Origin: Gammaproteobacteria bacterium
Lineage (GTDB): Bacteria; Pseudomonadota; Gammaproteobacteria; UBA4575
Reading direction: 5' to 3'
NCBI GenBank assembly: GCA_965222615.1
Contig: CBDCUI010000009.1
Span: 608,001 to 672,000 of the forward strand
Length of the DNA: 64,000 bases
Part shown: one piece after another, positions 14,334 through 61,437 of the stretch
Layout of the letters: every line of letters starts with the position of its first letter
How positions within the stretch are numbered: the first letter of the stretch is position 1
Notes under the pieces: model-generated
What the model was told of the DNA's origin: nothing
The model's input: only the letters and a program-made list of their open reading frames with translations
Databases searched by the model: none
Position numbers and translations under genes: made by a program

Positions 14334-15152
14334 TCAACAACGATGAATCGCCCATGCAACATCTAAGGCTTGGCGATTTTGCCAAATATCATGGACACGA
14401 AAAATTTTTACCCCAGCTAACACACCGAGTGCTGAAGTTGCACAGGTTGCTGGCATTCTCTCACGTGGGTCTTGTTGGTTTGCTATTTCTCCCATAAAAC
14501 GCTTACGACTGGTCCCAATTAAAACTGGGTAACCTAAAGATGTTATATCAGTGAGATCCCGTAATAATTCTAAATTATGTTGAGTACGCTTTCCGAAGCC
14601 AATACCAGGATCAAGAATAATATTTTCTTTTTTAATACCTAGGTCTTGAGCATTTGTCGCTTGGTTAATCAGAAACTCTGATACCTCTTTAGTAACATTC
14701 TCATAATTAGGACTATCTTGCATGTTTCCAGGATCTCCCTGCATATGCATGAGGCAAATTGGCACATCATTATCTGCTGCAAGTTTTAAAACAGACTTAT
14801 CTTCACGTCCTGCACTAATGTCGTTAAGCATCGTCGCCCCAGCATCTAATGAAGCTTCAGCGACCTCAGACAAAGTCGTATCAATACTTATATGTGTTTG
14901 TGCTGGTAATTCTTTGCGTAAACCTGCGATAACATCAAGTACTCTTCTCTTTTGCTCTTTTGCATCTATACGTTGTGCTCCTGGGCGTGTAGATTCTCCG
15001 CCAACATCAATGATGTCAGCACCCTGCTCTACCATTTCAATACCACGTGTTATTGCATCCTTAGAAGATGGATACATCCCACCATCAGAAAAGCTATCTG
15101 GCGTTACGTTTAATACTCCCATCAGGAGTGGCTTAGAATAATCAAGCTGCAT
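14334..15152 (-). CDS. folP: Dihydropteroate synthase
   Basis: MGVLNVTPDSFSDGG, DVGGESTRPG, DPGIGFGK, SRKRF, RVHD. Confidence 0.96.
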   Translation of the reverse strand: MQLDYSKPLLMGVLNVTPDSFSDGGMYPSSKDAITRGIEMVEQGADIIDVGGESTRPGAQRIDAKEQKRRVLDVIAGLRKELPAQTHISIDTTLSEVAEASLDAGATMLNDISAGREDKSVLKLAADNDVPICLMHMQGDPGNMQDSPNYENVTKEVSEFLINQATNAQDLGIKKENIILDPGIGFGKRTQHNLELLRDLTDITSLGYPVLIGTSRKRFMGEIANQQDPRERMPATCATSALGVLAGVKIFRVHDIWQNRQALDVAWAIHRC

Positions 15153-29765: not shown

Positions 29766-30629
29766 TTAACTGCTTGCATGTTGTCGTTCAAATTGTACAG
29801 GTGTTAAGTAATTCAAGTAACTGTGTCTACGCTGTCGATTGTAAAAAATCTCTATATATTCAAAGATACTGCGTTTAGCTTGTTCGCGTGTTTTATACTG
29901 ACAATGATGAGTCAGCTCTGTCTTTAGTGTATGAAAGAAACTCTCCATCGCTGCATTATCTAAACAATTGCCTTTACGGCTCATACTACAAGTCATGCGA
30001 TGGTCTTTCAGTAGTTGATGATATTCAGAGGTGCGATATTCCATGCCTTGATCCGAGTGAATCAGTAAGTCTCGTTTGCGTGAGCGTTGACTTAAAGCCA
30101 TCCTAAGCGCATCCAACGTTAAGTGTTTATTACGTTTGTCTGACATCGACCAACCAATGATTTTTCTAGAAAATAAATCCATAATCACTGCGACATATAA
30201 CCAACCGGCCCGAGTGGGCACATAGGTGTAATCGGATACCCAGCGTTGATTCGTGTGTTGCGCAGAGAAGTCACGTTGCAATTGATTGGTTTCTATATGT
30301 TCAAACGTCTTACCTCGCTTGCTTCGCTCCCATAAACATTTCATGCGCGTCTTTAACCCGGCTTGCTTCATCAAGCGTGCCACACGATGTTTGCCACATG
30401 GAACACCTGAGGCGTTCAGCTCAGCATGAATTCTAGGATAACCGTATGTCTGTCTTGAAGATTGATGAATATCGATAATCAGCTTCAGCAATTGTCGATT
30501 GGCTTTAGTACGCGCACTCATCGGCCGATCTCGCCATGCATAGTAACCACTCTCAGAGACTTGCAGTGCACGACATATCCAAGCAATTGGATAATCATGG
30601 CGATGCTGATGAACCCACTCAAACTTCAT
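29766..30629 (-). CDS. IS3 transposase OrfB (DDE)
   Basis: WVSDYTY, HSDQG, GNCLDNAAMESFF. Confidence 0.95.
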   Translation of the reverse strand: MKFEWVHQHRHDYPIAWICRALQVSESGYYAWRDRPMSARTKANRQLLKLIIDIHQSSRQTYGYPRIHAELNASGVPCGKHRVARLMKQAGLKTRMKCLWERSKRGKTFEHIETNQLQRDFSAQHTNQRWVSDYTYVPTRAGWLYVAVIMDLFSRKIIGWSMSDKRNKHLTLDALRMALSQRSRKRDLLIHSDQGMEYRTSEYHQLLKDHRMTCSMSRKGNCLDNAAMESFFHTLKTELTHHCQYKTREQAKRSIFEYIEIFYNRQRRHSYLNYLTPVQFERQHASS

Positions 30630-30922
30630 TCCGATAGCTTGGTGAAGTGGTGGGTCGCTTTTTTTAAAATCTCATTCTCTGCACGCAAACGTTCGTTCTC
30701 TTTACGCAGTTTCGTTAATTGCGCAGCTTCACCACTTTGTTGACCTTTACCAGGAAAGGAATCTTCGCCTTTAATGGCCAATTGCTCTTTCCATTTGTAT
30801 ATTTGATTGACGCGAATACCAAGTTCACGCGCCACTTGAGTGACTGATTGGTCACTTTCTTCCGCTAATCGAATCGCTTCTAACTTAAATTCTTTTGTGT
30901 ATTGACGATATTGTCGTGGCAT
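30626..30922 (-). CDS. IS3 transposase OrfA
   Basis: YTKEFKLEAI, HTH, ENEILKKA with A7 slippery run at 30659-30665; ATGA overlap with orfB. Confidence 0.93.
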   Translation of the reverse strand: MPRQYRQYTKEFKLEAIRLAEESDQSVTQVARELGIRVNQIYKWKEQLAIKGEDSFPGKGQQSGEAAQLTKLRKENERLRAENEILKKATHHFTKLSE

Positions 30923-40195: not shown

Positions 40196-40891
40196 CTAGT
40201 GTTTGTAAGGCTTAATGGCTTTTCGAATCGGTCGTGGGTCGTTTGTAGTCTTACCTGGTTTCGGTAACGCTACGCCAATTAAACAATCCCGTGTAACAAT
40301 TTCGGTTAATTGATCTTCAGTCCAACCCTCTGTTCCCTCAGGACGTACTGGCATCACAATAAACCGAGACTTCTGATTCGAGTCTTCAACTCTCACTTCA
40401 ACGTCTGCTGGAAGCTGCAAACCAAACTCTGCAAGTACTTGGCGCGGCCAGCGTACTAAGCGTCGTCGATAGTTCGGTGTTCGATACCACTCTGGAGATT
40501 GACCAAGAATCGGTCGTGGGTAACAGGAACACAGTGTACACACCACCACGTGATGTAGCTTCGGTGTATCCTCAAGAACACGTAAATTGCAATAATCACT
40601 AGGTGTACCAAACTTAGTAGGCATTTGATTAACCCAGTCGATACCTACTTCCAGACTGGCTTTAACACCGTCTTCCACAGCCAACTTTTTGAATTCAGGA
40701 TCCAACCATGCTTTGGCAACTAGACGCGCAGCAGGTGTTGGCCCCAGTGTGTGCATATATTCTGTCCACGCCTGATGATCTTCCGCAGTGAACAGACCTT
40801 TCTCAATAGCAAGTTCGCGAACCGCAATTTCAAGTATCTCAAACTCACTGACTTCATCCACCATTGGTGCGGGTTTATGCTTCTCTGCCAT
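40196..40891 (-). CDS. scnC: Thiocyanate hydrolase gamma subunit (Co-binding)
   Basis: VVCTLCSCYP Co-type claw motif; LGQSPEWYRTPNYRRRLVRWPR. Confidence 0.95.
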   Translation of the reverse strand: MAEKHKPAPMVDEVSEFEILEIAVRELAIEKGLFTAEDHQAWTEYMHTLGPTPAARLVAKAWLDPEFKKLAVEDGVKASLEVGIDWVNQMPTKFGTPSDYCNLRVLEDTPKLHHVVVCTLCSCYPRPILGQSPEWYRTPNYRRRLVRWPRQVLAEFGLQLPADVEVRVEDSNQKSRFIVMPVRPEGTEGWTEDQLTEIVTRDCLIGVALPKPGKTTNDPRPIRKAIKPYKH

Positions 40892-40949
40892 TTGTTCTTC
40901 CTCTTCTAATAATTAAGTTCTGATTGTTCTGCTGTATCGCTGTTGTTTT

Positions 40950-41318
40950 TTAAAGAGGCTCTAGCCATCGCTCGGGTAACTCAGTCTCTAAAGTATCGTT
41001 TGCAAATGTATCTGGATAATCCGGCCAAAGATCCTTTTGCTTGAATACCAAACTATAAAACCATTCAGGATTTTCCGTGTTATCCCAAGCCTCATCTTCT
41101 GCAGGAGGGCTTTCATAGACCAATGCAACAACAACTGCAGGAGCGCCACGTGTATAAGCTTGAGTGCGGGTATAAAAAATATCTGGCAGATCTCTGATAC
41201 GTACTTTATCGCCTACTTTAAATTTAGGTTTGCTAGCTTCACCTTTAAAGCATTGTGGATCACCTATTCCAGTAGCTTTTTTGACATGATGCTCTCTATC
41301 GTAATGTGGCTTACTCAT
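40950..41318 (-). CDS. scnA: Thiocyanate hydrolase alpha subunit
   Basis: ATGIGDPQCFKG, DLPDIFYTRT, FANDTLETELPERWLE resemble Thiobacillus ScnA as recalled; start at ATG 41318. Confidence 0.93.
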   Translation of the reverse strand: MSKPHYDREHHVKKATGIGDPQCFKGEASKPKFKVGDKVRIRDLPDIFYTRTQAYTRGAPAVVVALVYESPPAEDEAWDNTENPEWFYSLVFKQKDLWPDYPDTFANDTLETELPERWLEPL

Positions 41319-41742
41319 AACGTTTTTTAACCTCGTCAATCTTGTCCTGAAGTTCAGTAAGTGTGACGTATTGCTTATCAACTAATATCAATGCAGCGGT
41401 AAGCAACCACCGACCATAATAAGGAAGACCCAAATATTGCGTCTGACCTACATCTACGTTTTGGCGACGCCGTCTTTCCTCTGCATTCCAAACACCGCGC
41501 CAAGCTAAAACTTCACAAGTTACAAAGGTATTGTGTTCCCACACTTCCTCTTCCTTTTCTTCCCAAGGAATGGGCACATCTCGTTCACCGCCTACGTCAT
41601 GTGCTGCTCGTGTATAGGCACGATATTGTTCGTTAGTAACCTCATCGGGAGATGGGGCATGTGTTTCTTGATGCAACGCTGGCTGTAACAGACCGACAAG
41701 ATTAAGATGGCTTAGAACTCGATCTCTAGTAGAAGATGACAT
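41311..41742 (-). CDS. scnB: Thiocyanate hydrolase beta subunit
   Basis: QPALHQETHAP, HDVGGE, LAWRGVWNAEERRR, DVGQTQYLGLPYYGRWL resemble Thiobacillus ScnB as recalled. Confidence 0.93.
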   Translation of the reverse strand: MSSSTRDRVLSHLNLVGLLQPALHQETHAPSPDEVTNEQYRAYTRAAHDVGGERDVPIPWEEKEEEVWEHNTFVTCEVLAWRGVWNAEERRRRQNVDVGQTQYLGLPYYGRWLLTAALILVDKQYVTLTELQDKIDEVKKRYE

Positions 41743-44564: not shown

Positions 44565-44712
44565 TGATTTATACAGCCGTATCCCTAAAACTAGAATTAC
44601 CTGGCAAATTAGATTACTCAAATTTATTTAAATTTCCTCAAAAATAAATATTGGGATTGAGTTGCTATGTGATACCTGGCTATTGAAGATTACTTTTCAG
44701 CGAGGAGTCGAT

Positions 44713-45153
44713 ATGAATAAAGAAGAAATGACCGACTGCATTATTGCAGCAAAAAAAGCTAAAGGTCTCACCTGGGAAACCATTGCTCACAAAGTTGGTA
44801 AAGGCACAACCTGGGTAACCTCTGCTTGTTTAGGAATGAACAGCACCACTGAGGAAGTCGCAAAAAGCTTATGCGAAATTCTTGGGCTCGATGAAGATGT
44901 TTGTACAACATTACAAGAATATCCACACAAGGCATGGGACAAAACGATACCGCAAGATCCAGTAGTCTATCGATTTTATGAAATCGTTGGTGTCTATGGC
45001 GATACTATTAAAGAAATTATAGCTGAGAAGTTTGGGGATGGAATTATGAGTGCTATCGATTTTTCTATGGATATTGACAAAGAAGAAAACCCTAAAGGCG
45101 ATCGAGTGGTAATCACCATGAATGGTAAATTCTTAAAATATACTTCGTGGTAA
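44713..45153 (+). CDS. cynS: Cyanate hydratase (cyanase)
   Basis: DPVVYRFYE, EKFGDGIMSAIDF, GDRVVITMNGKFL; ATG 44713 behind GAGGAG. Confidence 0.96.
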   Translation: MNKEEMTDCIIAAKKAKGLTWETIAHKVGKGTTWVTSACLGMNSTTEEVAKSLCEILGLDEDVCTTLQEYPHKAWDKTIPQDPVVYRFYEIVGVYGDTIKEIIAEKFGDGIMSAIDFSMDIDKEENPKGDRVVITMNGKFLKYTSW

Positions 45154-52119: not shown

Positions 52120-53211
52120 ATCCAAGTGCACCACTAACTTAAGTGGCAGGACATGAATTCTTATCCAAGTAAAATGAGGTTTTCGAGATCTTATTTTAGC
52201 AGGAGGGATTCATGTCCTACGTACATGTTAGCGCAAAAGAACGTCATACATTAATGTATTTGTTGCATCTTCGTTTCAGTTATCGAGAGATTGGACGTCG
52301 ATTAGGCCGTCATCACAGCACCATCTCAAGAGAAGTCAAACGTAATGGTCGCAGGTCTGGTTGGAGTTATTGGGATGAATACGCGCAGTGCCAAGCGCAA
52401 CAGCGTAAACGTCAGCCTCGTCATCGGAGAAGACGAGATCATCAAACACTCTATAACAAGGTCATCGCGTACTTACGCCAAGGCTGGTCCCCGGATGCCA
52501 TCAGTGGCTGGTTGCGCAGACATTACAAGAAGCGTTCTCGCGTACAGGTCTGCACAGAAACGATTTATCAGTGGATCTATTGTGATGCCCAAACAGGCGG
52601 CACGTTATATCACTATTTAGCCTCGCAGCATAAGAAGCGCAAACGACAGCCTTTGAATAGGCTCAAAACGATCGGCATTTCACATCGAGTAGGGATTGAA
52701 CATCGTCCTGATCATATTGAAAAAAGACAACGACTAGGCCATTGGGAAGGCGATACGGTGGAAGGGGCCAAAGGCTGTGGCGGTGTGGTGACCTTAGTCG
52801 AACGTAAAAGCCGGTTTCTTCTTGCAGGTTTGCTTAAAGACAAACAAGCCCTCACCTTTAGTCAAGTTTCACAACAAGCACTTAAAAACATTCCAAGTAC
52901 ACTATGCAAAACATTGACCTTGGACAATGGGAAAGAAAATGTCCTGCATCAACAAATCAGCCAATCAAAAAAGATGAAGATCTATTTCACCGATCCGTAT
53001 TCACCTTGGCAACGCGGTACCAATGAACAAACCAATGGTTTATTGAGAAGAACCTTTCCTAAAGGAACTGATTTTCGTAAAGTATCTAAACAACAACTTA
53101 AAAAAGCCGTTAAACGCATTAATCAACGACCTCGTAAAATACTCAACTACTTAACACCTGAGGAAGTTTTTATGAATGCCGTGAATGGTGCACTTTGAAT
53201 TGGAACTCGCC
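52108..53211 (+). mobile_element. IS30-family insertion sequence
   Basis: 26-bp imperfect IRs GGCAGATTCTAGATCCAAGTGCACCA / GGCGAGTTCCAATTCAAAGTGCACCA; 2-bp AA duplication. Confidence 0.93.
52212..53198 (+). CDS. IS30 transposase
   Basis: STISREVKRN, GHWEGDTV, DNGKE, PWQRGTNEQTNGLLR. Confidence 0.95.
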   Translation: MSYVHVSAKERHTLMYLLHLRFSYREIGRRLGRHHSTISREVKRNGRRSGWSYWDEYAQCQAQQRKRQPRHRRRRDHQTLYNKVIAYLRQGWSPDAISGWLRRHYKKRSRVQVCTETIYQWIYCDAQTGGTLYHYLASQHKKRKRQPLNRLKTIGISHRVGIEHRPDHIEKRQRLGHWEGDTVEGAKGCGGVVTLVERKSRFLLAGLLKDKQALTFSQVSQQALKNIPSTLCKTLTLDNGKENVLHQQISQSKKMKIYFTDPYSPWQRGTNEQTNGLLRRTFPKGTDFRKVSKQQLKKAVKRINQRPRKILNYLTPEEVFMNAVNGAL

Positions 53212-53785: not shown

Positions 53786-54199
53786 TTGAAAATGTCTTCA
53801 AATAACAACTCTGATTTTATTCTTTTATCCACGCTAATTAATAAACTAAAAGATAATAACTATTATCGTACATTTGCTAAATCATTACTACGAGCAAACA
53901 TCGAAGAACATAATTTACCATCTGATAATGAGCTTGTCGCAGAGATGTTTCGTTATTTTATCAAGGAAAATGAGCTATATATGTTTCACAATAGTTCAAA
54001 AGTATCTGCAGATTATATTGAGTCCGAAGCAAACCGAAGAATTTTAGAGAAAACTAAAGAAAAAAAAGATATAGAACTTATGAAGGAATTAGAACAAAAA
54101 TTAATTTGGGAGAAAGAAATTTACATAAACATAAAAGATTTAAAGAAATTATATGCGAATAAATGTATCGTGTTTCCGAAGTCATTGTTAAATGGCTAA
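53786..54199 (+). CDS. Hypothetical protein
   Basis: AT-rich 137-aa ORF, no motif. Confidence 0.55.
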   Translation: MKMSSNNNSDFILLSTLINKLKDNNYYRTFAKSLLRANIEEHNLPSDNELVAEMFRYFIKENELYMFHNSSKVSADYIESEANRRILEKTKEKKDIELMKELEQKLIWEKEIYINIKDLKKLYANKCIVFPKSLLNG

Positions 54200-54588
54200 C
54201 CTTTAGCTTCAAAATCATCTTCTCTAAGTTTTGCTGTCCCATCTTCTTGCAATATCCAGAGCTCTTTATAAATAACACCACTGGCCTTATTCATTTTCCA
54301 ATTTGAAGTTAATATCGCACTTTTGTCATCAACTACTTCAATTTTTGGACCCACATATTCAACATCTGAAAATCCCTGGTCTATGAGATTTTGCCAAAAT
54401 CCTTGAATCTCCACTGTTCCTGTAAACGTACCAAATGGCCTAGCGTTCATTACTGCATCTTCTTCATATTGGGATACACAACCCACCGCATCACCTGAAT
54501 TAAAGGACTTTTTCCATAATTCGCTTGCTGTGTTAATTGCATTCAAAACCATAGCTTTTTGCTCATCAGTAACCATATGCTTTCTCAC
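54196..54588 (-). CDS. NTF2/SnoaL-like (DUF4440-type) protein
   Basis: FNSGDAVGCVSQYEEDAVM, GTVEIQGFW, ELWILQEDG. Confidence 0.8.
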   Translation of the reverse strand: MRKHMVTDEQKAMVLNAINTASELWKKSFNSGDAVGCVSQYEEDAVMNARPFGTFTGTVEIQGFWQNLIDQGFSDVEYVGPKIEVVDDKSAILTSNWKMNKASGVIYKELWILQEDGTAKLREDDFEAKG

Positions 54589-54637
54589 TTCATAAGTTAA
54601 ATTGCCCGCAAATTAATTACCGCGAAGCGATTCCTTA

Positions 54638-54667
54638 GGGTTCGGCTCCACTTTTCACGTTCAATTA
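54638..54667. repeat. Partial third copy of tRNA-linked repeat
   Basis: gggttcggctccacttttcacgttcaatta matches 55690-55719 at 28/30 nt. Confidence 0.8.
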
Positions 54668-55501
54668 CTCAAATAATTTAAACCGTACCCAAGTTAGATC
54701 AACTTTATCAAAATCTAAGTTAGGAACTACACTCAAATTTAAATCAGTAAATAATTCATGTTTTGTTATTTTATTAATGCTTTGGTCAAATGATAACAAC
54801 TTGTTAATCGAAACTGCTAATTGTGTGTGGTGTGCTACTAAAGCAACCATATTACGCGTCAAAACAGGTTGATTATCTATATCTATTCTTAAAGTTCCAC
54901 CTTTATGTTTAATTAGCCGCAGATGCAATAGTTGATGAAATTCTTGACAGTTATCAGATATATTTTTAACAATATTTTTCCACTCATTACTACTTAAATA
55001 TGGATCTTCAAACTTCTCAAAATTAACTTTTGCAGTAATAAAAAAATTTTCTATTTCATCAACTAATTTTTTAGAAATATCATATGACCCATTTTTTGAA
55101 TCTGGAAAAAGTTTAGAATGAAGTTCACGTACATTATCAAAATGCAAATGACTATTTTCAATATTTATCATAGAACTAACATAGTCTTCAAATTCTTCAA
55201 CATGCCTATAATAATTAGAAAATATATTTTGACTTTTTGATTCATGAATCTGTGCTTTTGTTTGCTCTGACCGATGATTTGATGCTAGTAGTGCAATTGT
55301 TGGAATTAATAATGCTAAAATACCAAGAGGTAATTTGTAATATGAAAATAGATTATTGAAACATTCAACTTCGGGACAAAATCTAAATTCATTCAAAAGT
55401 AATATTGCAATCGCAGATATCAGTGCAAATAATAGTATTATCCATACAACATATTTGAAAACTGCAAGTTCAAATAAACTTTTATTCGGATCGAACATCA
55501 T
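54665..55501 (-). CDS. Hypothetical two-TM protein
   Basis: Very AT-rich; two N-terminal TMs then ASNHRSEQTKAQI..QNIFSNYYRH. Confidence 0.75.
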   Translation of the reverse strand: MMFDPNKSLFELAVFKYVVWIILLFALISAIAILLLNEFRFCPEVECFNNLFSYYKLPLGILALLIPTIALLASNHRSEQTKAQIHESKSQNIFSNYYRHVEEFEDYVSSMINIENSHLHFDNVRELHSKLFPDSKNGSYDISKKLVDEIENFFITAKVNFEKFEDPYLSSNEWKNIVKNISDNCQEFHQLLHLRLIKHKGGTLRIDIDNQPVLTRNMVALVAHHTQLAVSINKLLSFDQSINKITKHELFTDLNLSVVPNLDFDKVDLTWVRFKLFE

Positions 55502-55579
55502 ATGTTTATTATTATTAAACTTTGCTAGTCATATTAGCCAGATTTTCTGTTCCCCAATAGCAATAGAATCATAGGCCTA

Positions 55580-55928
55580 TGGTGGAAAGAGGGATTACAA
55601 AATACTTCCTTGTATTTTGCCCTTCGGGCCGGTGTCGCTACGCTCCCCCGTTCAAATTTGTTCCAGACAAATTTGTCGACCCTCTCCTCGGGTTCGACTC
55701 CACTTTTCACCTTCAATTATCAAAGACGGGATAAATACCGTCTTTGATAATTGTGGCGGAGAGAGAGGGATTACAAAATACTTCCTGTATTTTGCCCTTC
55801 GGGCCATCGCCTACGGCGATGTTCAAAATCGTTCCTGACGATTTTGTCGAACCTTATTATTTATTCCGAGGGTTCGAACACAATCATCAATAATTATTTG
55901 GGGGAGCGTAGCTCCCCCAAATAATTAT
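55580..55928 (-). repeat. Two tandem about 175-bp tRNA-linked repeat units
   Basis: Units 55754-55928 and 55580-55753 each end (minus strand) in a copy of the tRNA-Ser 3' end; perfect hairpins 55888-55930 and 55714-55753. Confidence 0.88.
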
Positions 55929-56020
55929 TGGCGGAGAGAGAGGGATTCGAACCCTCGGTGCCCCGTTGAGGACACACTCACTTTCCAGGCGAGCCCGTTC
56001 GACCACTCCGGCATCTCTCC
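55929..56020 (-). tRNA. tRNA-Ser (GGA)
   Basis: GGAGAGATGCCGGAGTGG...cctGGAaa...long variable arm...GGTTCGAATCC...CCA. Confidence 0.96.
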
Positions 56021-56115
56021 AAATAAAAACATTTACTACGAGCACTTATAATAGATTAAGTGCTTAAAATTGTAGTACTCAGCACCTTTTAAGTTTACCT
56101 AACTTTAATCTGTTT

Positions 56116-56176
56116 GCATCGTCCCTGATGCAACTCTTACTCACACATCCATGTGTTCGCTACCGGCATCTCTCCA
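56116..56176 (-). repeat. Copy of tRNA 5' end fused to a hairpin repeat
   Basis: ccggcatctctcca at 56163-56176 duplicates the tRNA 5' end; 56116-56150 matches 23648-23682. Confidence 0.65.
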
Positions 56177-56380
56177 CACTTGTGAGCGGGTATTGCTCGC
56201 AAATTAATTATCGCGTAGCGATTCAATACTCTATCTTATGCAAATTAAGTATATCGCAGCTACTCCACTTTAATAATAGTTATTGGAGGATTGCAAAACA
56301 TTCCCACGAAAATTACTCAACAGTCGTGCACATCATCCATGATGCGATCTTTCTCGTGAATCCATTCACTTGTAATTGAG

Positions 56381-56719
56381 TCAGGAACTTTTGCCTTTGT
56401 CGTTGCTTGGATTATATATAGAAGATGGGAAATGAGCGACATTTTCACCGGCGTCAGATATTTTTGCGACACCTTGCTTGTCGACTTCATCAATTCGAAT
56501 AATGGCATGCATCGGAACAAAAAAACGTTTAACCTGATCAAATTCAGACTTGAGCTTTTCTTCACTAGGATCAACTACAACACTAGTCCGTTCGTCAAAT
56601 GTCAGACCTTCTATGGTAATGAAACCATACAAATCTGATTGATACACTTGCTGTGCGTAAATCTCAAAAACTTTGTTTTGATTATAAAAACTTATTTTAT
56701 AGATCGTCTTTTTTGGCAT
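56381..56719 (-). CDS. DUF1820 family protein
   Basis: IYKISFYNQNKVFEIYA, VVVDPSEEKLKSEF, PMHAIIRIDEV. Confidence 0.88.
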   Translation of the reverse strand: MPKKTIYKISFYNQNKVFEIYAQQVYQSDLYGFITIEGLTFDERTSVVVDPSEEKLKSEFDQVKRFFVPMHAIIRIDEVDKQGVAKISDAGENVAHFPSSIYNPSNDKGKSS

Positions 56720-59418: not shown

Positions 59419-60937
59419 CTAGCAATTTATTGATAGCATTAAACAATGATGTCGCTTGTATAGGTTTTACAATGAAGTCATCACAACCTGCTGCGAGAGC
59501 ATTTACTTTGTCTTCGCCATTGGTTGATGCAGTCATGCCGATTATCGGGATCTTAGTCTCTGACTTACTCAACTGCTTCGCGACATCAATACCATTTAAC
59601 TTTGGCAACTGCAGATCTAATAGCATTAGATTAAAGTTTCCAGTTTTACATTGCTCCAATGCATCATCCCCATCAAAAACTGCAAAACTAGAATACCCAA
59701 ATTCATGCAAATAAATTTTTAACAGCTCAACTAAATCTTCATCGTCTTCAACAACTAAAATTTTAATTTCATTATTTGCTGAAAGCTTACTAACCTGTTC
59801 AGATACTACCGTAGATACTTGTTTAGCCGGTATCGAAATTGTAAAAACCGAACCTACTCCAACCTCAGACTGCAATTCAAGCTCGCCACCTAATTTTTCA
59901 ACCAGTTGTTTACTAATGGAAAGTCCTAATCCTGCCCCCTTTTGTCCACTAGATTGAATTCGACTGAATGCTTCAAATACTGATTGTTTATATTCATCTG
60001 AAATGCCTGGACCGGTGTCTACAATACTTACAATAAGCTTATTATCGACCCAATCGACTTTTACACTGACTGAACCTTCTCTTGTATATTTAATCGCATT
60101 GCTGAAAATATTTATTAATACTTGTTGCAGTCTAATGCGGTCAGATTCTATAACTTTAGGCAATTCGTCAACTACTTCAAAAACAAAATTTAATTCTGCT
60201 TCTTTTGCCTGTGCTGCAAACATCACCTTAAGGTCATCAAGCAATTCCTCTAAATGAAACGGAGCAATATTGAGAACTAAGTTATCTGTTTCCAACTGCG
60301 CATGCTCCAGCACATTATCAATCAAAGATAACAAATATTTTGTATTTCTTTCTATTGCTCTTGCATAGCGATATTCATTATCTTTTTCAGAATATTGTTT
60401 CGCTAATATATTTGAATATCCCAAAATCGATGAAATAGGTGTTCGAAATTCATGTGACATACCTGAAATAAAGCGAGACTTAGCACGGTTTACTAGCTGT
60501 AATTGCTCGTTATAGTTTTTAAGCTCTGACTGCGCTTCTTTCAATTGCTCTGTCAATTGCCTCAACTTCACGTTTAGTAATTTAGTATCGTTAGAGGCTT
60601 GGGTTGTGTCTTGTTGACGATGATGCTCGGATGTTGCATCTAACATGATTACAAACCGACTTTGGTTAATCTTTATAATGTCGATACTAGCTACCATATC
60701 ACTATTTAAACTGACCAGTGGTAAAGTAATATAGGACTCATCTTCTAACCCTACTAAAAAAGGAAGATCGTCAACACAGCTATCGCCAGCAGTAAAATCG
60801 GGAAGTTGATAATTAGTTAGATTGCCGTAATGTGAAACATAGTTGTTATCGTTATCGACAACAACAACAAGTGGCTTCAATCTTTCTGCAGATAATACAT
60901 AAAGATTTTCAGCAATTTTGTTTATATGTTGACTCAT
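59405..60937 (-). CDS. Hybrid sensor histidine kinase
   Basis: SHEFRTP, NAIKYT, DTGPG, GAGLGL, C-terminal receiver domain; no TM seen. Confidence 0.93.
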   Translation of the reverse strand: MSQHINKIAENLYVLSAERLKPLVVVVDNDNNYVSHYGNLTNYQLPDFTAGDSCVDDLPFLVGLEDESYITLPLVSLNSDMVASIDIIKINQSRFVIMLDATSEHHRQQDTTQASNDTKLLNVKLRQLTEQLKEAQSELKNYNEQLQLVNRAKSRFISGMSHEFRTPISSILGYSNILAKQYSEKDNEYRYARAIERNTKYLLSLIDNVLEHAQLETDNLVLNIAPFHLEELLDDLKVMFAAQAKEAELNFVFEVVDELPKVIESDRIRLQQVLINIFSNAIKYTREGSVSVKVDWVDNKLIVSIVDTGPGISDEYKQSVFEAFSRIQSSGQKGAGLGLSISKQLVEKLGGELELQSEVGVGSVFTISIPAKQVSTVVSEQVSKLSANNEIKILVVEDDEDLVELLKIYLHEFGYSSFAVFDGDDALEQCKTGNFNLMLLDLQLPKLNGIDVAKQLSKSETKIPIIGMTASTNGEDKVNALAAGCDDFIVKPIQATSLFNAINKLLVENA

Positions 60938-61437
60938 GAAAGTACTTTTTCAGCGAGTTCCTGAAAAGCTTTTTCTACATTTTCACCTGACTTCGCACTG
61001 GTTTCAAAAAATAACCAACTATGATCTTTAATCTTTTTTACAGCTGATTCCGGACAATCCCACTGCCCTTTTAAGTCATTTTTATTTATTAGCATACAAA
61101 ACGGCACGTCACCGCATTTCTTGCTCATTTGTTCTTGAAGTTTAAATGCAGCCTCTAAAGTGTCTTTACGTGTACCATCTGCTACTAACATATAGCCCGC
61201 TGACCCTTTAATATAGTTTTCGTCTAATGTAGTGAACGTGTCTTTGCCAGCAATATCCCAAATTAAAAACTTCAACAAAGTCTCTTCATTTACTTTGATC
61301 TCCTTGGAATCTACTTTTACACCAACGGTGCTGAGATATTTTTCCGAGAATATGTTATTCACAAAGCGAGAAACAAGACTGGTTTTTCCAACTGAAAAAT
61401 CGCCAATCATACAAATTTTCTTATTGATGACATTCAT
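60934..61437 (-). CDS. Rab/Ras-like small GTPase
   Basis: GDFSVGKTS, STVGV, WDIAG, NKND, TSAKSG. Confidence 0.92.
   Translation of the reverse strand: MNVINKKICMIGDFSVGKTSLVSRFVNNIFSEKYLSTVGVKVDSKEIKVNEETLLKFLIWDIAGKDTFTTLDENYIKGSAGYMLVADGTRKDTLEAAFKLQEQMSKKCGDVPFCMLINKNDLKGQWDCPESAVKKIKDHSWLFFETSAKSGENVEKAFQELAEKVLS

Follow-up and report, generated by a model that had tools for sequence, protein, structure and literature searches.

The question raised by this 64,000-nucleotide stretch of a gammaproteobacterial contig (CBDCUI010000009.1 of assembly GCA_965222615.1; called here the window, always meaning the whole 64 kb) is what kind of array lies directly downstream of its tRNA-Ser(GGA) gene, where two tandem repeat units, each led by a hairpin, are followed by a gene encoding a 278-aa protein and by a fragment of a third unit. 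The first-pass annotation of this DNA saw a cassette-like array which captures genes and is acted on in trans. The explanation that we favor, and consider probable, is an array of tRNA-trailer units resembling the RtT RNA of Escherichia coli, with a single secondary insertion of mobile DNA. The anatomy of the array, the homology of its units to RtT, their conserved fold, the tails copied from the local tRNA and the variation in unit number are documented below; what produced the array, and how the gene came to lie in it, is then weighed against the alternatives.

All coordinates for the tRNA, units, gene, stub and repeats are given on the minus strand (Table 1). The repeat has periods of 175 nt (55928-55754) and 174 nt (55753-55580), beginning at the last tRNA base, in agreement with the two units, each preceded by a different perfect hairpin, that had been described previously. 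Unit 1 consists, in order, of an inverted pseudo-copy of the T arm (GTTCGAACCCTCGG), the motif GGTTCGAC, a four-hairpin block, GTAATCC and an exact copy of the 19-nt 3' end of the tRNA. This 19-nt sequence, AATCCCTCTCTCTCCGCCA, occurs at exactly two sites in the 64 kb, the end of the tRNA (55947-55929) and the end of unit 1 (55772-55754), and 0 of 100 shuffles gave a match such as the second site. Unit 2 ends in a decayed copy of the same sequence (13/19), so that, of the two regenerated tRNA ends noted earlier, one is exact and the other degenerate; no third copy is found in the window at up to 3 mismatches, nor is there one past the gene. The motif GGCCCGAAGGGC of the conserved block occurs twice in the window, against 0.05 occurrences expected. 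Hairpin 1 has arms of 20 nt with 100% complementarity and folds at -31.8 kcal/mol (z -9.2), hairpin 2 at -22.7 kcal/mol (z -9.5), and the two have in common an outer stem, AATTAT/ATAATT, around unlike inner stems. The TAA of the gene lies, as had been claimed, within a partial third unit: a 30-nt stretch (54667-54638) copies the start of unit 2 (55719-55690) at 28/30 positions without gaps, which places the gene between parts of the repeat. This stub comprises the end of the 3' arm of a spacer hairpin and the first bases of a unit, and, in an alignment read by eye, extends a few bases beyond the 30 nt with one indel. A 33-nt direct repeat (30/33), with a small terminator-like hairpin in each copy, flanks the tRNA, units and gene together, its copies lying 1591 bp apart, and a weaker third copy is found at 56233-56265.

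RtT (rttR in E. coli) and its 19-nt tRNA ends have long been known in that species, and the family has been curated mainly from enteric bacteria. The four copies at tyrT-tyrV of E. coli K-12, which have a 178-bp period, score 133-137 bits with the Rfam RtT model (RF00391), and all four end with the last 19 nt of the tRNA-Tyr (19/19). The same model aligned over its full length with unit 1 of the window; besides the tRNA and this match, Rfam families gave sub-threshold noise only over 54300-56500 at E up to 10. In a joint alignment the window and E. coli units are held together by GGTTCGAC, a hairpin, GAAC, a hairpin, GCCCGAAGGGC, a hairpin and GTAATCC, all in the same order; the shared motifs also include AAGGTTCGAC, GAAC, CCCGAAGGG and GTAATCC, and the 12-nt GGCCCGAAGGGC is kept in both window units and nearly kept in E. 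coli.

Relatives were sought by scanning genome contigs with a gapped motif pattern that excluded the typical enteric variant. Of the 25 stretches obtained, 24 were kept; the remaining one, from a Rhodospirillaceae metagenome-assembled genome (MAG), was taken as a chance match to the pattern (20.8 bits, with neither hairpins nor a tRNA). A covariance model built from 35 units (R1) detected all four E. coli RtT copies at 55-63 bits, and in the 24 loci it found 35 units scoring at least 38.9 bits, one to three per locus. To obtain a second model (R2) independent of the window, three E. coli copies were combined with 29 further sequences, 32 in all, none of them from the window or its closest relative (locus L005); this model gave the two window units 93.1 and 91.2 bits, with E about 1e-22 for each, and its single other match in the rest of the 64 kb at E up to 10 was the tRNA's own T arm (13.9 bits). 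The Rfam cut-off of 45 bits is reached by 3 of the 35 units in the other 24 loci, two of them in L006 and one in L010, and these bridge the curated family and the kind seen in the window, since they both pass the Rfam cut-off and match the pattern derived from the window. We conclude that the window units, as judged by sequence, are homologous to RtT and not merely analogous to it, and that they lie outside Rfam's present boundary. The connection to the tyrT repeats of E. coli is accordingly stronger than the resemblance first proposed, being one of homology by Rfam, joint alignment, R1 and R2. As the Rfam cut-off is an operational boundary which the window units do not reach, they are called RtT-like here rather than members of the family.

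The fold is conserved as well. In an alignment of 35 sequences, 85.7% of the cells of the four-hairpin structure pair, compared to 65.3% in shuffled alignments and 30-40% with slid partners; double changes in the helices number 185 cells vs 62 expected. Three of the four helices covary, while the remaining one, GCCC/GGGC, is invariant. The reverse complement of the 5' part of each unit aligns to the T arm and acceptor strand of the tRNA; each unit thus comprises two copies of the tRNA 3' region in inverted orientation to one another, and the four-hairpin block, about 85-90 nt long, interrupts the downstream one in its T loop, following A58. In unit 2 the two copies form a closing stem, in which the 5' strand GGTGAAAAGTGG pairs with the tail (fold -45 kcal/mol, z -3.1). 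Over the family the closing-stem duplex averages -12.4 kcal/mol with a unit's own tail vs -9.4 kcal/mol with the tails of other units (Wilcoxon p 5e-4, the units being non-independent).

Table 1. Features of the tRNA-Ser(GGA) locus in the 64-kb window.
Feature	Coordinates	Strand	Basis or remarks
tRNA-Ser(GGA), array anchor	56020-55929	minus	ARAGORN; Rfam tRNA 55.9 bits
Spacer hairpin 1	55888..55930	minus	20-bp perfect stem, 3-nt loop; covers last two tRNA bases
Unit 1 body	55754..55887	minus	RtT 28.6 bits, E 0.0067; R2 93.1 bits over 55856-55754
Spacer hairpin 2	55714..55753	minus	16-bp perfect stem
Unit 2 body	55580..55713	minus	R2 91.2 bits over 55685-55578; same architecture as unit 1
278-aa gene	55501-54665	minus	ORF list
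Third-unit stub	54634..54673	minus	copy of 55724-55686
33-nt direct repeat, left copy	56192..56224	minus	upstream of tRNA locus, 30/33
33-nt direct repeat, right copy	54601..54633	minus	directly after stub, 13 nt before next gene
tRNA-Ser 5'-end copy	56163..56176	minus	14 nt exact, 155 nt upstream of tRNA

The 24 related loci come from Kangiella, Alcanivorax, Alteromonas, Aestuariibacter, Arsukibacterium, Pleionea, Rudaea and gammaproteobacterial MAGs. At 17 of them a tRNA is followed, at a distance of 42-109 nt, by the start of a unit in the same orientation; at two (L009 and L019) the units precede the tRNA; at one, L005, ARAGORN calls no tRNA, though the unit is joined to tRNA-Ser sequence, with a second copy further on; and the stretch examined holds no tRNA at the other four. 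At least eight anticodon types are involved, with Arg-ACG, Glu-TTC, Gln-TTG, Gln-CTG, Lys-TTT, Tyr-GTA, Ser-GGA, Ser-TGA and Ser-GCT represented. Tails could be read in 37 units and were unreadable in three more. Nine of the 37 match the neighboring tRNA at 19/19 positions (window unit 1, the four E. coli copies, and units of L002, L006, L007 and L018) and four at 17-18/19 (L003, L010, L023 and L026); the units that end an array mostly retain just the first five to eight bases of the tail. A further RtT-like unit (48.9 bits), upstream of the tRNA-Ser(TGA) of L018 at 2299-2485, lies within a tandem duplication of 171 nt, into which the first 12 nt of that tRNA also fall.

A tree of the block without its tails (95 columns) has two clades, with support of 96/96; Tyr, Gln, Glu and Ser types are found in both, as are Alteromonadaceae, so that the block has moved between tRNA partners on more than one occasion. 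In this tree the L005 unit, and not unit 2 of the window, is closest to window unit 1, the two forming a sister pair (99/96). The three tandem units of L015 (85-509) have their first two hairpins in common, with a fourth hairpin that differs wholly between units a and b on the one hand and unit c on the other, the version in c being that of the window; L015 looks like a mosaic from recombination between subfamilies of the block.

In three loci the 5' part of a tRNA runs into the block at the T loop: L005 (60-252, Ser), L006 (1672-1828, Gln) and L009 (about 1930-2105, Gln). Each of these interrupted tRNAs adjoins an intact copy of the same tRNA, and they could have arisen either by deletion between two GGTTCGA repeats or by insertion into the T loop. 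The idea of the block as an intron-like insert was rejected: in-silico excision restores a tRNA call in 1 of the 37 units, that of L009. The fusion of the tRNA-Ser 5' part to the block in L005 is at a site matching the 14-nt copy of the tRNA 5' end in the window (Table 1), and this copy is possibly a remnant of an upstream tRNA copy such as L005 still has, an idea that draws on the 14-nt repeat and synteny alone. In the window the tRNA-Ser(GGA) locus is flanked by the DUF1820 gene and a SnoaL-like gene. L005 and the window have 70% DNA identity across the DUF1820 and phosphoesterase genes; their pairwise alignment at the site of the 14-nt copy is poor and unconvincing, R2 with its filters off found no remnant of the block between the 14-nt fragment and the tRNA, and, on reading its sequence by eye, L005 does not have the 33-nt repeat.

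In the window a hairpin separates the tRNA from the first unit. By a strict rule, 10 of 19 relatives have a canonical intrinsic terminator as this spacer, and the spacers of L017 and L023 resemble terminators by eye, with the T run paired within a longer stem. In relatives the terminator often recurs after the tail of the unit. Hairpins 1 and 2 of the window were also considered as terminators and rejected, neither the terminator scan nor the strict rule flagging them; hairpin 1 lacks terminator polarity because the U run is on the 5' side of its G+C core and the A run on the 3' side. The slot represents the 3' flank of the tRNA gene itself, which was duplicated together with the tail; as far as can be seen, it is no recombination site.

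The 278-aa gene is foreign. Its G+C content, 27.2%, is the lowest of the 67 open reading frames (ORFs) of at least 90 aa in the window, for which the median is 39.7%. The protein has two N-terminal membrane helices followed by the motif NHRSEQTKAQI...QNIFSNYY.H.EEFE. Besides itself only 21 homologs are found in a large protein set, in Thiodiazotropha, Halomonas, Pseudomonas abyssi and others; the two membrane helices are common to all of them, and residues H76, R77, S78, Q80, Q91, N92, F94, N96, H100, E102, E103 and F104 are invariant throughout. There is no Pfam match to the protein. PADLOC 2TM_IV (E 4.5e-9), phrog_17460 (E 4e-13), NCBIfam NF038235 (retron_Ec48_2TM; residues 19-152, E 6e-7, at 29.2 bits vs a cut-off of 65) and an Atlas cluster named for the retron-Ec48 2TM family (fourth rank, 0.95) all match it, which taken together suggests a distant kinship with the retron-Ec48 2TM effector. 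The resemblance of the cargo to that effector is weak, seen in three libraries under curated cut-offs; unlike the effector, the protein is longer and has a C-terminal domain of its own, and, unlike the situation in retron Ec48, no reverse transcriptase domain is found among the 67 window ORFs. According to a passage of bioRxiv 10.1101/2020.06.21.156273, the 2TM effector is required for the defense conferred by that retron. The predicted structure is confident (pLDDT 88, pTM 0.67) and has no look-alike in PDB or BFVD at E up to 0.001. A seeming resemblance between the last codons of the gene and hairpin 2 was dismissed as an alignment artifact, because the C-terminal residues are shared with the homolog P0002, a 49% identical protein encoded on a contig of 3 kb.

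Homologs of this gene are also carried by eight records of temperate Vibrio phages, 14-15 kb long. In the one record inspected (L027, Vibrio phage PQ189363.1; 35% identity over 178 aa, E 3e-28) the homolog is the last gene of a PM2-like prophage (Vinavirales), beside a LexA-like repressor and not, as in retron Ec48, a reverse transcriptase, with its stop codon right against the 15-nt direct repeat at the prophage ends. That repeat lies at 2-16 and 14340-14354 of the record and resembles a tRNA segment running from T loop to acceptor strand; were it one, the phages would integrate at the very tRNA position where RtT tails begin. In the window, 470 bp from the gene, is a 137-aa ORF on the plus strand (53786-54199), with no family match and the second lowest G+C content (27.3%); it could be another fragment of the foreign DNA to which the gene belongs.

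Compared with RtT, then, the window has units of about 175-178 bp in tandem, co-oriented with a tRNA and immediately 3' of it, a proximal unit whose end repeats the final 19 nt of this tRNA, from A58, the same core sequence and helices, an inverted copy of the tRNA 3' region as the 5' part of the unit, and a copy number that is unstable among relatives. It differs in its anchor, tRNA-Ser(GGA), and in its source, the nearest relative fetched being labelled Thiotrichales; in its score, which is under the Rfam cut-off; in the long perfect hairpins of its spacers; in having units that are old paralogs, and not near-identical as in E. coli; and in the gene within the array. The E. coli unit contains a short reading frame, tpr. 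A search of the RtT literature, which yielded passing mentions only, did not find the breadth of the family, its inverted-copy anatomy or a gene within an array.

If the window units behave like those of E. coli, they would be transcribed within the tRNA operon and excised by the tRNA-processing enzymes, and their products would be small folded RNAs with a tRNA-like end; the RefSeq note on the E. coli copies reads "rtT sRNA, processed from tyrT transcript", and a passage in PMC4986893 reports small RNAs of the RtT family beside Asn and Lys tRNA genes. The array would grow, shrink and be patched by ordinary homologous recombination between the repeated tails and blocks. Originally it would have had three units; mobile DNA would then have entered the third spacer, replacing most of its hairpin, of which the last bases, TAATTG, would remain; and most of the mobile DNA, along with most of unit 3, would later have been deleted. 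The 278-aa gene is most likely the last surviving gene of a decayed integrated element, not a part of the module. The low G+C content of the 53786-54199 ORF and the IS30 copy nearby both fit a decayed island. As in islands and prophages integrated at tRNAs, a foreign, low-G+C gene lies 3' of a tRNA with repeated 3' ends, and the Vibrio homolog is the end gene of a temperate phage, abutting an att repeat; unlike in such islands, there is neither a tyrosine recombinase by the tRNA nor any other gene of an element, and it is the 5' part of a unit, the unit start, that brackets the gene, rather than the tRNA tail.

Several observations weigh against this explanation. Unit 1 scores below the Rfam gathering score (28.6 vs 45 bits), and unit 2 is not reported by the Rfam RtT model at E up to 10. 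The closing stem, considered as a universal feature, had to be given up, as it is found in part of the family only, and unit 1 is among those that do not have it. Since units 1 and 2 are not nearest relatives, the array is old and has not been homogenized as in E. coli, and the terminators between tRNA and unit mean that co-transcription would need read-through. The insertion history leaves unexplained both the repeat of the unit start around the rest of unit 2 plus the gene and the 33-nt repeat around the whole locus; no phage or integrase gene survives beside the cargo; and L005, the sole close relative, stops at a contig edge within its second tRNA-Ser, with no empty site seen.

The capture array of the first-pass annotation would be a system with a slot behind each regenerated tRNA end, filled by a hairpin in one case and a gene in another, by means of a site-specific recombinase encoded elsewhere. 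It accounts for the 28/30 direct repeat of the unit start that brackets the gene, for spacer hairpins with common outer arms and unlike interiors, for a gene of a mobile, defense-like kind and for a unit number that varies among relatives. Beyond these it finds no support in the loci compared. None of the 24 loci, with their 35 units, has an ORF of at least 80 aa between units, and in none does an array fragment recur beyond a gene, the window being the only case in the set. Among the 66 flanking ORFs scanned in related loci there is no recombinase domain; the flanking genes are mostly housekeeping ones (prs, nadA, rmuC, mreB, gltX and lolB, for instance), though a few arrays precede genes of defense or toxin type (WYL in L017, HipA in L023). 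The absence of an integrase from the window, noted previously, is upheld: its 67 ORFs include no tyrosine or serine recombinase, and "integrase core" domains occur only in two DDE transposases, one of IS3 type (29766-30922) and one of IS30 type (52212-53198), the latter 1.4 kb past the array and of 44% G+C. For E. coli, 5442 records were sampled at even intervals, and the annotation under the match was surveyed in the resulting 40 rows. The RtT count is four in 10 rows, three in 6, two in 8, one in 10 and none in 6, one strain being without just the copy between tyrT and tyrV, and in 0 of the 40 is a gene annotated between units. Four Kangiella species have one or two units at one tRNA-Arg, in the orientation of the tRNA, one of them with a weaker copy on the opposite strand. 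Unit number thus varies, as expected for tandem repeats, and the variability foreseen by the earlier annotation is real, but the exchange of cargo that it also foresaw is not seen in these relatives. An E. coli ST131 strain has a seven-gene cluster between a single tRNA-Tyr and narI (L029, 172-7282), encoding desaturases, a PAP2 phosphatase, and F390-synthetase-like and KAS III-like proteins among others; it takes the place of the array and the second tRNA-Tyr, with no RtT remnant at either end and no integrase. The flank of the tRNA is a variable spot, and cassette behavior is not seen in the loci compared. Only superficially, too, is the window like an integron, in that hairpins and a gene alternate after a fixed anchor: it has a single gene, no Phage_integrase-type domain and no integron integrase, and its hairpins are perfect palindromes, the equivalent hairpins of relatives being plain terminators (10/19). 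The attC sites of integrons are imperfect, with unpaired bases. With its central claim lacking support in the loci, the E. coli rows, the flanks and the terminators, we regard capture in trans as very unlikely.

A different possibility is that the block is a mobile insertion at the DNA level, which targets the T loops of tRNAs and gains host-specific ends at each locus, its hairpins being conserved for an enzyme that works on folded single strands and not for an RNA function. Such an element would explain why Tyr, Gln, Glu and Ser types, and the Alteromonadaceae, are mixed across the two well-supported clades, why exact local-tRNA tails are found in six tRNA types, why terminators part the tRNA from the unit at 10 of 19 loci, why the L015 units combine the same first two hairpins with a wholly different fourth, and why in L005, L006 and L009 the 5' part of a tRNA enters the block at the T loop beside an intact copy. 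The last of these is explained equally, however, by deletion between the GGTTCGA repeats of a tRNA and the neighboring unit, and the tree is based on 95 columns; none of the 24 loci is associated with a transposase or recombinase, removal of the block in silico yields a tRNA call in just the one unit, and the E. coli unit is a detected RNA (RefSeq note; a passage of PMC4986893). We consider this reading unlikely. Hardly credible, finally, is the view that the units are functionless, decaying duplicates of the 3' half of the tRNA with a superficial likeness to RtT, to which the 13/19 tail of unit 2, the lack of a closing stem in unit 1 and the sub-threshold Rfam score might be thought to lend themselves; it is essentially refuted by the strong covariation and by the R2 scores of both units under a model from which they had been left out, and the presence of the 12-nt GGCCCGAAGGGC in both units, and nearly so in E. 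coli, is also against it.

There is a bolder version of the T-loop idea, which we put forward as a long shot: that RtT-type modules are a mobile family specific for T loops, whose spare pseudo-ends are used as targets by elements that insert at the ends of tRNAs. It draws on the mixed tRNA types in the tree, the local tails, the three interrupted tRNAs, the gene bracketed by copies of an inverted pseudo tRNA end and the prophage homolog that abuts an att repeat. Were it true, the ends of a module would be rebuilt upon each move to a new host tRNA, as one direct and one inverted copy of its 3' region, and arrays would collect phage and defense genes, such as that for the retron-Ec48-like protein, with the tRNA undamaged.

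Two other regions of the window deserve mention. A gene at 60934-61437 on the minus strand encodes a 167-aa small GTPase of the Ras/Roc type (Pfam Ras, E 2.6e-36), and lies directly downstream of genes for a hybrid histidine kinase and an Hpt protein. Genes resembling those of nitrile hydratase alpha and beta (40196-41742 and 44662-45153) are found near those for a cyanate lyase and a DsrE-family protein, which suggests the use of thiocyanate or nitriles by a sulfur-oxidizing gammaproteobacterium.

For the window itself, the RtT-like reading means that the annotation should carry two RtT-like RNAs, one stub, and an orphan gene for a defense-like membrane protein at the variable flank of a tRNA. 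The same folded block is widespread in other Gammaproteobacteria, at tRNAs of at least eight anticodon types and mostly under the Rfam threshold, and related units usually carry the end of their own local tRNA. The wider set of units provides a much richer alignment for work on the structure of RtT, and its breadth sharpens the question of how one block has reached so many tRNAs.

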